Positions 16,919 through 17,349 are shown, counted from the first letter of the stretch. The stretch is DNA of 20,350 nt from Escherichia coli (GCF_003334335.1 NZ_QOWQ01000052.1), one strand, 5' to 3'. A program made the numbers and translations. The notes: generated by a model from the sequence alone, not told the origin.

Positions 16919-16977
16919 GAGAGTTACCGGTTTTGATATGAGTGTCGAATCCTTATCCAAAACAAGAGGTAACTCTC
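16919..16977 (+). repeat. inverted repeat / leader hairpin enclosing the ylbG ribosome-binding site
   Basis: 10-bp perfect arms GAGAGTTACC (16919-16928) and GGTAACTCTC (16968-16977), with inner complementarity GTTTTG / CAAAAC; the 3' arm overlaps the AAGAGG SD and ends one base before the ATG at 16978. Confidence 0.6.
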
Positions 16978-17349
16978 ATGCTTCATACTGCCAATCCCGT
17001 CATCAAACACAAAGCCGGTTTGCTCAATCTGGCTGAAGAACTCAGCAACGTATCAAAAGCCTGTAAAATCATGGGCGTTTCGCGTGATACGTTTTATCGT
17101 TACCGCGAACTGGTCGCTGAAGGCGGTGTGGATGCGCAGATTAATCGTAGTCGCCGCGCTCCTAACCTTAAGAACCGTACCGATGAGGCAACTGAACAGG
17201 CTGTTGTTGATTACGCCGTCGCTTTCCCGACACATGGTCAGCACCGGGCCAGCAACGAGCTGCGTAAACAGGGGGTTTTTATCTCCGACAGTGGTGTCCG
17301 TTCTGTCTGGTTACTCCATAACCTTGAGAATCTCAAAAGACGATACTGA
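16978..17349 (+). pseudogene. ylbG: IS481-family transposase N-terminal fragment (HTH region only), 123 aa
   Basis: ATG at 16978 after AAGAGG (the track's GTG at 16942 is a less likely start). The protein matches the N-terminal DNA-binding part of IS481-like transposases (MGVSRDTFYRYRELVAEGG...) but stops after 123 aa with no DDE catalytic domain and no flanking IS ends. Confidence 0.7.

Follow-up and report, generated by a model that had tools for sequence, protein, structure and literature searches.

Transcripts that read into IS10 and IS50 from outside are reportedly subject to fold-back inhibition, a finding said to go back to Davis, Simons and Kleckner in 1985 and to Krebs and Reznikoff in 1986. 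The leader of the Escherichia coli gene ylbG has a comparable layout: as in IS10 and IS50, a sequence near the element end is complementary to the ribosome-binding region, so that outside transcripts could occlude the start. The native promoter of IS10 and IS50 is understood to lie between the two arms, whereas a sigma-70 scan found none in the ylbG leader. Antisense RNAs that pair with the transposase 5' untranslated region (UTR) are a further means of control, represented by RNA-OUT in IS10 and art200 in IS200. The titles and abstracts of papers on IS200 (PMC4513863) and ISPpu9 (PMC8450116) place secondary structure of the 5' UTR among the controls on transposase expression. [quoted passage not shown] The elements themselves are unrelated to the IS481 lineage, since the IS200 transposase is of the HUH type and ISPpu9 belongs to another family.

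The DNA analysed here (the window) is a stretch of 20,350 nucleotides from E. coli (GCF_003334335.1 NZ_QOWQ01000052.1). Positions 16876-17402 represent the decayed remnant of an IS481-family insertion sequence (IS) of about 1.2 kb, with a leader hairpin that is native to the lineage and probably occludes translation of the transposase. The feature at ylbG is real, correctly located and has an ordinary explanation, a decayed IS481 element at an island junction. With full-length IS481 (NF033577) elements it has in common the leader, a left terminal inverted repeat (IRL) starting with TGT, and the N-terminal helix-turn-helix (HTH) region, in which YlbG shares 90% identity with residues 1-122 of the 346-aa transposase of a full-length Serratia element of this family (L013). 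Unlike those elements, the window copy is without the DDE core and the right inverted repeat (IRR), immobile and single-copy; judged by its sequence, the locus is a remnant of an IS481 member and not a functional member. Because ylbG is a dead mobile-element fragment, the result has small weight for E. coli biology. Its novelty, also small, lies in a family-wide leader structure supported by covariation and in the overlap of this structure with Rfam psRNA2.

The gene order in the window is that of E. coli allS, mnmH (selU/ybbB), ylbG and the RhsD element. A query of 1.2 kb spanning the feature found a match in 5410 of 5426 complete E. coli genomes, while the region beyond the end of mnmH is present in only 2727 of them; thus, the ylbG locus is absent from about half of the complete E. 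coli genomes. The open reading frame (ORF) translates exactly to UniProt YLBG_ECOLI, and its K-12 counterpart is b0502, 'putative DNA-binding transcriptional regulator YlbG'. RefSeq names the ORF 'ylbG: helix-turn-helix domain-containing protein; incomplete; missing C-terminus', and other depositors have named the same protein cluster 'IS481 family transposase' or 'ISSod13, transposase' ('ISSod13-like' being the label of the IS lineage in some public annotations). YlbG matches profile positions 2-112 of 284 in NCBIfam NF033577 (IS481 family transposase) with an E value of 2e-25; its score of 89.9 bits is under the curated cut-off of 224 because just these positions remain. Pfam matches are to HTH_29 (a complete domain) and HTH_32. 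The gene had been predicted to encode an N-terminal HTH remnant of an IS481-family transposase, and these matches bear this out; for the K-12 protein, a more apt label is that of an internally deleted remnant of an IS481-family transposase. A run of T at 17275-17285 (in GGGGGTTTTTATC) is one T shorter in an allele that is common in E. coli, O104:H4 being one example, and the missing T produces a frameshifted YlbG of 132 aa, altered after residue 100. This allele was found on at least 1000 contigs, as was the intact 123-aa protein, which is present in K-12 and many other strains.

Annotated full-length 'IS481 family transposase' relatives include those of Serratia nevei (L013), Klebsiella michiganensis (L014) and Pseudoalteromonas (L015), with nucleotide identities to the window copy of 88%, 81% and 74%, respectively. 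Each unit is about 1.2 kb long and bounded by 26-27-nt inverted repeats, TGTATTAGTCGCGACTTGATCTGACA and TGTCAGATCAGGTCTGAGCTAATACA, that lie about 1150 nt apart. The L013 protein scores 288.9 bits on NF033577, over the curated IS481 cut-off, and GCTCATC, read from the sequence on both sides of this element, is a possible target-site duplication. An nhmmer profile was built from the three full-length elements and run against the window. The IRL of the window copy is identical to that of the full-length elements, which carry TGTCAGATCAGGTCTGAGCTAATACA as their IRR; most matches in more than 1000 plasmids begin at query position 5, which is window position 16876, and the full 102-nt leader is kept. 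The original prediction that no IS ends are visible was therefore mistaken for the left end, which retains its inverted repeat and the leader in full.

About 470 bp, corresponding to IS nucleotides 464-935 or so and holding the DDE core, are deleted from the window copy. The deletion shifts the reading frame, and the final residues of YlbG (RRY, followed by the stop) are read from the frame shifted across the junction. A C-terminal piece of about 65 nt follows and runs to 17402. This fragment was first spotted by eye and then confirmed with nhmmer; tblastn with distant full-length transposases as queries found the N-terminal part only, missing the short fragment, and detected no DDE/rve segment across the 20-kb window. 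The gene is thus truncated, as had been proposed, in that DDE core and right end are lost; it is not a simple truncation, because the loss is an internal deletion followed by a C-terminal piece. The predicted absence of a DDE domain agrees with both searches. No significant IS homology was found by nhmmer in the window past 17402, and the IRR is absent. A degenerate right inverted repeat at 17560-17620, proposed by eye and with MAFFT, was dropped because nhmmer is blank beyond 17402. A third, weak nhmmer match (E 8e-4) arises because the leader palindrome at 16914-16983 matches itself on the minus strand. With both the DDE core and the right end, including its inverted repeat, gone, the element is unable to move. 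A search of the flanks for terminal repeats, as suggested in the original prediction, thus recovered the left one and not the right one, and the similarity to IS481 transposases is accompanied by a single inverted repeat and no full-length gene, so that neither of the two outcomes named there as refuting the prediction was obtained.

The remnant stands at the edge of an island. BLAST matches of island-free genomes end at query positions 154-170 (window 16853-16869), and the island-free strains 536 and HS, as well as an O25:H4 strain with a different island, are collinear with the window to about 16865-16869. Because the IS starts at 16876, its left end fixes the mnmH-side junction of the RhsD island within about 6 nt, in line with the proposal that the accessory Rhs region is bounded by a decayed IS. 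The site between mnmH and ybbP hosts alternative islands: in strain 536, mnmH leads directly to ybbP with just REP-like sequence between them; in HS, the site holds a dinQ-like type I toxin gene; in the O25:H4 strain, a T6SS/DUF2931 island; and in the window, the RhsD island. On the Rhs side, window positions 17433-17513 on the minus strand match at 88% a gene elsewhere for an 'RHS element core protein'. This Rhs-core fragment (ylbI; 17402-17513, minus strand) abuts the end of the IS remnant, which suggests that one rearrangement both cut off the right end of the IS and joined it to Rhs DNA. In some E. coli genomes, IS1 has inserted downstream of ylbG, in the spacer that serves experimentally as a landing pad. 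This ybbD-ylbG spacer is treated as a neutral landing pad in the literature, where ylbG appears solely as a landmark of this integration site, with no function reported for it. The features of the locus are listed in the table.

Table. Features of the IS481 remnant, its leader and its junctions (window coordinates)
Feature	Position	Strand	Basis
mnmH stop (16860-16862) and last backbone bases; 6-nt junction (16870-16875) before the IS	16860..16875	+	Alignment with 536, HS and O25:H4
IS nt 1-463: IRL, leader, transposase codons 1 to about 121	16876..17338	+	nhmmer E 6.6e-145
IRL, TGTATTAGTCGCGACTTGATCTGACA	16876..16901	+	nhmmer model position 1 at 16876
TTGAAA motif, weak candidate -35; TTTGAT at 16932-16937 after 17 nt	16909..16914	+	Family-conserved; in the left-end-specific spacer
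Outer helix, 5' arm: T and GAGAGTTACC	16918..16928	+	Minimum-energy fold, inverted-repeat search, relatives
Middle helix (16930-16935/16958-16963) and apical helix (16938-16944/16951-16956), conserved loop GUGUCGAAU	16930..16963	+	Minimum-energy fold
Shine-Dalgarno purines, AAGAGG	16964..16969	+	Sequence and fold
Outer helix, 3' arm: GGTAACTCTC and A of ATG	16968..16978	+	Minimum-energy fold, inverted-repeat search
ylbG ORF (ATG at 16978, stop ends at 17349); 123 aa, residues 1-121 being the transposase N-terminal HTH region	16978..17349	+	
Internal deletion junction, CAAAA microhomology	17334..17341	+	nhmmer hits overlap at 17334-17338 (model 459-463 and 931-936); L013 alignment (2940-3000)
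Transposase C-terminal fragment, IS nt 931-999, encoding ..TILNKFYQVTFRKKLYGVLD.. in a frame discordant with ylbG	17334..17402	+	nhmmer E 1.1e-10; translation; alignment
ylbI, Rhs-core pseudogene fragment; IS remnant ends and Rhs-derived DNA starts	17402..17497	-	K-12 annotation mapped onto the window

A perfect 10-bp inverted repeat does bracket the ylbG leader, as had been proposed: GAGAGTTACC (16919-16928) pairs with GGTAACTCTC (16968-16977), and the repeat extends, less perfectly, over 16 nt (88%). For the 91-nt leader, the folding energy is -30.5 kcal/mol versus -17.0 +/- 2.8 kcal/mol for shuffled sequences (z = -4.9; 0 of 200 shuffles are as stable), so that the hairpin is real as a predicted RNA fold, and its position fits translational occlusion. 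The outer helix takes in the GG of the SD as well as positions -10 to -1 and, in the minimum-energy fold, the A of the ATG (A16978 paired with T16918); the leader helix therefore includes nucleotides of the SD and of the start codon, and occluding hairpins of the IS10, IS50 and IS200 type include one or both. The original prediction had placed SD and ATG in the 3' arm. This holds for the GG (16968-16969), the only paired part of the SD; the preceding AAGA (16964-16967) forms an internal loop, and the ATG (16978-16980) abuts the 10-bp arm rather than lying within it. Overlapping the 5' arm, GTTACCGGTTTT (16923-16934) is the inner inverted-repeat module of the IS, found in the same form beside the IRR of full-length elements. 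Three substitutions lie inside the window hairpin, which is about 4.5 kcal/mol less stable than that of close relatives, and the apical helix is weakened by a G-to-A change at 16941. The lower stability fits relaxed constraint.

A sigma-70 promoter scan of both strands between 16600 and 17900 returned no site. The pair TTGAAA-17-TTTGAT was not accepted by the scan, its -10 hexamer having no A at position 2, and may at most be regarded as a weak candidate promoter; transcription from it would begin inside the loop, sparing native transcripts. No terminator-like site was found by the scan between mnmH and ylbG. Read-through mRNA from mnmH would thus carry the whole hairpin, and YlbG would be poorly translated from it. 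The only terminator-like hairpin in 16600-17900 is at 17460-17480 on the plus strand (GGCATGTCACCCTGGCGTGCC followed by a T-rich tail), inside ylbI and downstream of ylbG.

Full-length relatives were sought in one genome per species, which gave 79 full-length loci with 78-98% protein identity. The hosts include Kosakonia, Erwinia, Pantoea, Acinetobacter, Vibrio, Pseudoalteromonas, Shewanella, Alteromonas, Moraxella and Candidatus Arsenophonus (with many copies), and many of the loci lie on contigs of 1.2 kb, which is what active elements present in several copies would be expected to give. Their inverted repeats are bipartite (in L013, at 2023-2060 and 3169-3205). At the right end, a 12-14-nt inner module, AAAAC[C/G]GGTAAC, abuts the terminal inverted repeat; at the left end, it is set apart from the terminal repeat by a spacer of about 17 nt with a conserved TTGAAA and the GAGA of the hairpin arm.

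All 59 distinct leaders folded gave one architecture, a three-tier stem-loop that ends at the start codon. A further copy lies beside fimbrial genes on a Klebsiella plasmid; over the stretch that starts with the IRL, spans the hairpin and ends at the ATG, it is nearly identical to the window sequence, with identical arms, while its flanks are unrelated. Covariation was measured on an alignment of 56 distinct leaders from full-length relatives in many Gammaproteobacteria. In this alignment, the outer helix is 98.6% paired and has three pairs changed on both sides, its variants GAGAG/CTCTC, GAAAG/CTTTC and AGAAG/CTTCT being perfectly compensated; the middle helix is 85% paired, with compensatory changes in five pairs. 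Overall, 91.2% of cells are paired versus 52% or less with slid partners. Eight pairs show double changes in 38 cells versus 11 +/- 2.6 in shuffles, and 500 shuffles gave no covariation as high as that observed, although these statistics overstate independence because the leaders are phylogenetically related. Compensatory changes of the kind tested for SD-occluding hairpins are thus present among the relatives. Loop lengths differ by as much as about 15 nt, yet the 3' arm always adjoins the ATG, with a conserved (A/G)AGG placed 8 nt upstream of that codon. The hairpin is therefore the native leader stem-loop of the IS lineage, which begins at the inner inverted-repeat module and reaches position -1 relative to the start codon, and not an invention of ylbG. 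A slight lean towards the mRNA strand was also seen: this strand has 57 G.U cells versus 29 A.C cells, a modest asymmetry that comes mostly from one column pair, and it gives the more stable fold in 42 of the 59 leaders.

Occlusion of the ribosome-binding site at the RNA level is the reading best supported by the observed position of the hairpin, its conservation, the compensatory changes that link its arms and its modest mRNA-strand lean. In an RNA that contains both arms, the helix would hold positions -10 to -1 together with the GG of the SD and so block binding of the 30S subunit. Such a block would keep translation of the transposase low, above all on transcripts reading in from outside. 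We infer that the hairpin forms in vivo and lowers translation. The leader stem-loop, backed by covariation across a widespread IS481 lineage, is a good candidate for translational control, and at ylbG itself the hairpin is presumably a relic rather than a regulatory adaptation.

The palindrome might instead act at the DNA level. Its arms would then be inverted copies of a transposase-binding module, GTTACC[C/G]GTTTT, bound by the N-terminal HTH domain for end recognition or transcriptional autorepression, and RNA folding would be incidental. This is unlikely, but several features speak for it. The module adjoins the right terminal inverted repeat in essentially all full-length elements, and its right copy co-varies with the left one lineage by lineage (CCGGTAAC, CGGGTAAC, GTGGGTAAC, ATCGGTAAC and ATGGGTAAC lineages). 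Since the 5' strand of the hairpin is also an inverted-repeat module that co-varies with the right end, part of its conservation has another cause than pairing, and this share probably reflects transposase binding. Moreover, a palindrome is symmetric on both strands, so that pairing counts alone cannot tell DNA from RNA. The distal part of the outer helix, however, behaves differently from the module: its covarying bases (GAGAG/CTCTC changing to GAAAG/CTTTC or AGAAG/CTTCT) are missing at the right end, which continues TGTCAG, and its compensations link the two hairpin arms only. The absence of these bases from the right-end copy argues that arm-to-arm pairing itself has been selected. The third copy of the module, in the 3' arm, is broken by a purine-rich bulge of variable length (4-15 nt) that contains the SD, and it always ends at -1; an SD bulge and a fixed spacing to the ATG are expected of an RNA device and not of a binding site. 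The excess of G.U over A.C cells on the mRNA strand also points to RNA.

Alternatively, the stem-loop could be the body of a cis-antisense sRNA that is transcribed outward across the leader and pairs with the transposase 5' UTR. The Rfam family psRNA2 (RF02349, 'Proteobacterial sRNA') has this orientation: it matches the minus strand of the window at 16804-16975 (31.1 bits, E about 1e-5) and, again antisense to the transposase, the left end of each of the 19 relatives scanned (36.6-54.8 bits). The outer and middle helices of the leader have their counterparts in helix 1 and the inner helix of psRNA2, with compensatory G-C for A-U replacement in the first helix. However, every one of these scores is under the gathering threshold of the family (65 bits), a literature search found no paper documenting psRNA2 expression and turned up psRNA1 and psRNA686 only as names of plasmids, the minus strand has no promoter-like site in the scan of 16600-17900, and the mRNA strand folds slightly better. 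The second (3') half of the psRNA2 consensus reads as the reverse complement of an IS left inverted repeat, while the distal third of the model falls outside the IS and aligns poorly, which suggests that the family was seeded on an IS end and its flank. On these alignments, psRNA2 appears to model the left end and flank of a sister IS lineage rather than a free-standing sRNA gene, and 'psRNA2' matches across genomes probably mark IS copies. An antisense RNA over the leader is thus possible but unsupported, and we consider the stem-loop very unlikely to be the body of one.

Truncated N-terminal derivatives of transposases act as inhibitors in other IS families, as in the case of IS1 InsA and IS911 OrfA. 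By analogy, YlbG and similar N-terminal fragments on Klebsiella, Salmonella and E. coli plasmids could have been retained as trans-acting HTH proteins that bind the inner and terminal inverted repeats and damp the transposition of incoming ISSod13-like elements, while the leader hairpin, perhaps together with an antisense RNA like psRNA2, would gate their synthesis; this seems highly improbable. Hardly any credence can be given to domestication of YlbG in E. coli as an HTH regulator or a trans-acting transposition inhibitor whose synthesis the hairpin now regulates: the 123-aa ORF with its complete HTH_29 domain is intact in many strains and the inhibitors just named offer a precedent, but in the contigs searched the frameshift allele is as common as the intact one (at least 1000 contigs each), half of E. 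coli is without the locus, the substitutions in the hairpin interior have cost stability relative to close relatives, and the literature treats the spacer as neutral. Given the equally common frameshift allele, the absence of the locus from half of the genomes and the use of the site as a neutral landing pad, YlbG is probably not functional.

Fragments of the same IS occur in virulence-associated regions. In E. coli Combat2C1 (L002 2850-3620), one lies beside cnf1 with its 5' end cut by an insertion of ISEc16 (IS3-family); plasmid p103605_146 (L001) carries another among IS110, IS3 and IS1 debris. A likeness between the 5' arm of the hairpin and the left end of ISEc16/IS3 in L002 was attributed to chance, being explained by the ISEc16 insertion in this paralogue. 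In Klebsiella plasmids (L007/L008 3001-3609), a 202-aa ORF fuses about 150 IS481-type residues to the C-terminus of an IS3-family transposase together with its right inverted repeat, and some depositors have named this chimeric ORF 'ISSod13'. The L007 homologue was considered for the right end and rejected, since its C-terminus and the inverted repeat downstream of it are of the IS3 family. The genome of the insect symbiont Candidatus Arsenophonus triatominarum (L054-L094) contains dozens of near-identical IS copies in which the leader hairpin is weakened (5' arm GAGCG, 3' arm GGTAATTCT), with a folding energy of about -10 kcal/mol versus -25 kcal/mol elsewhere.
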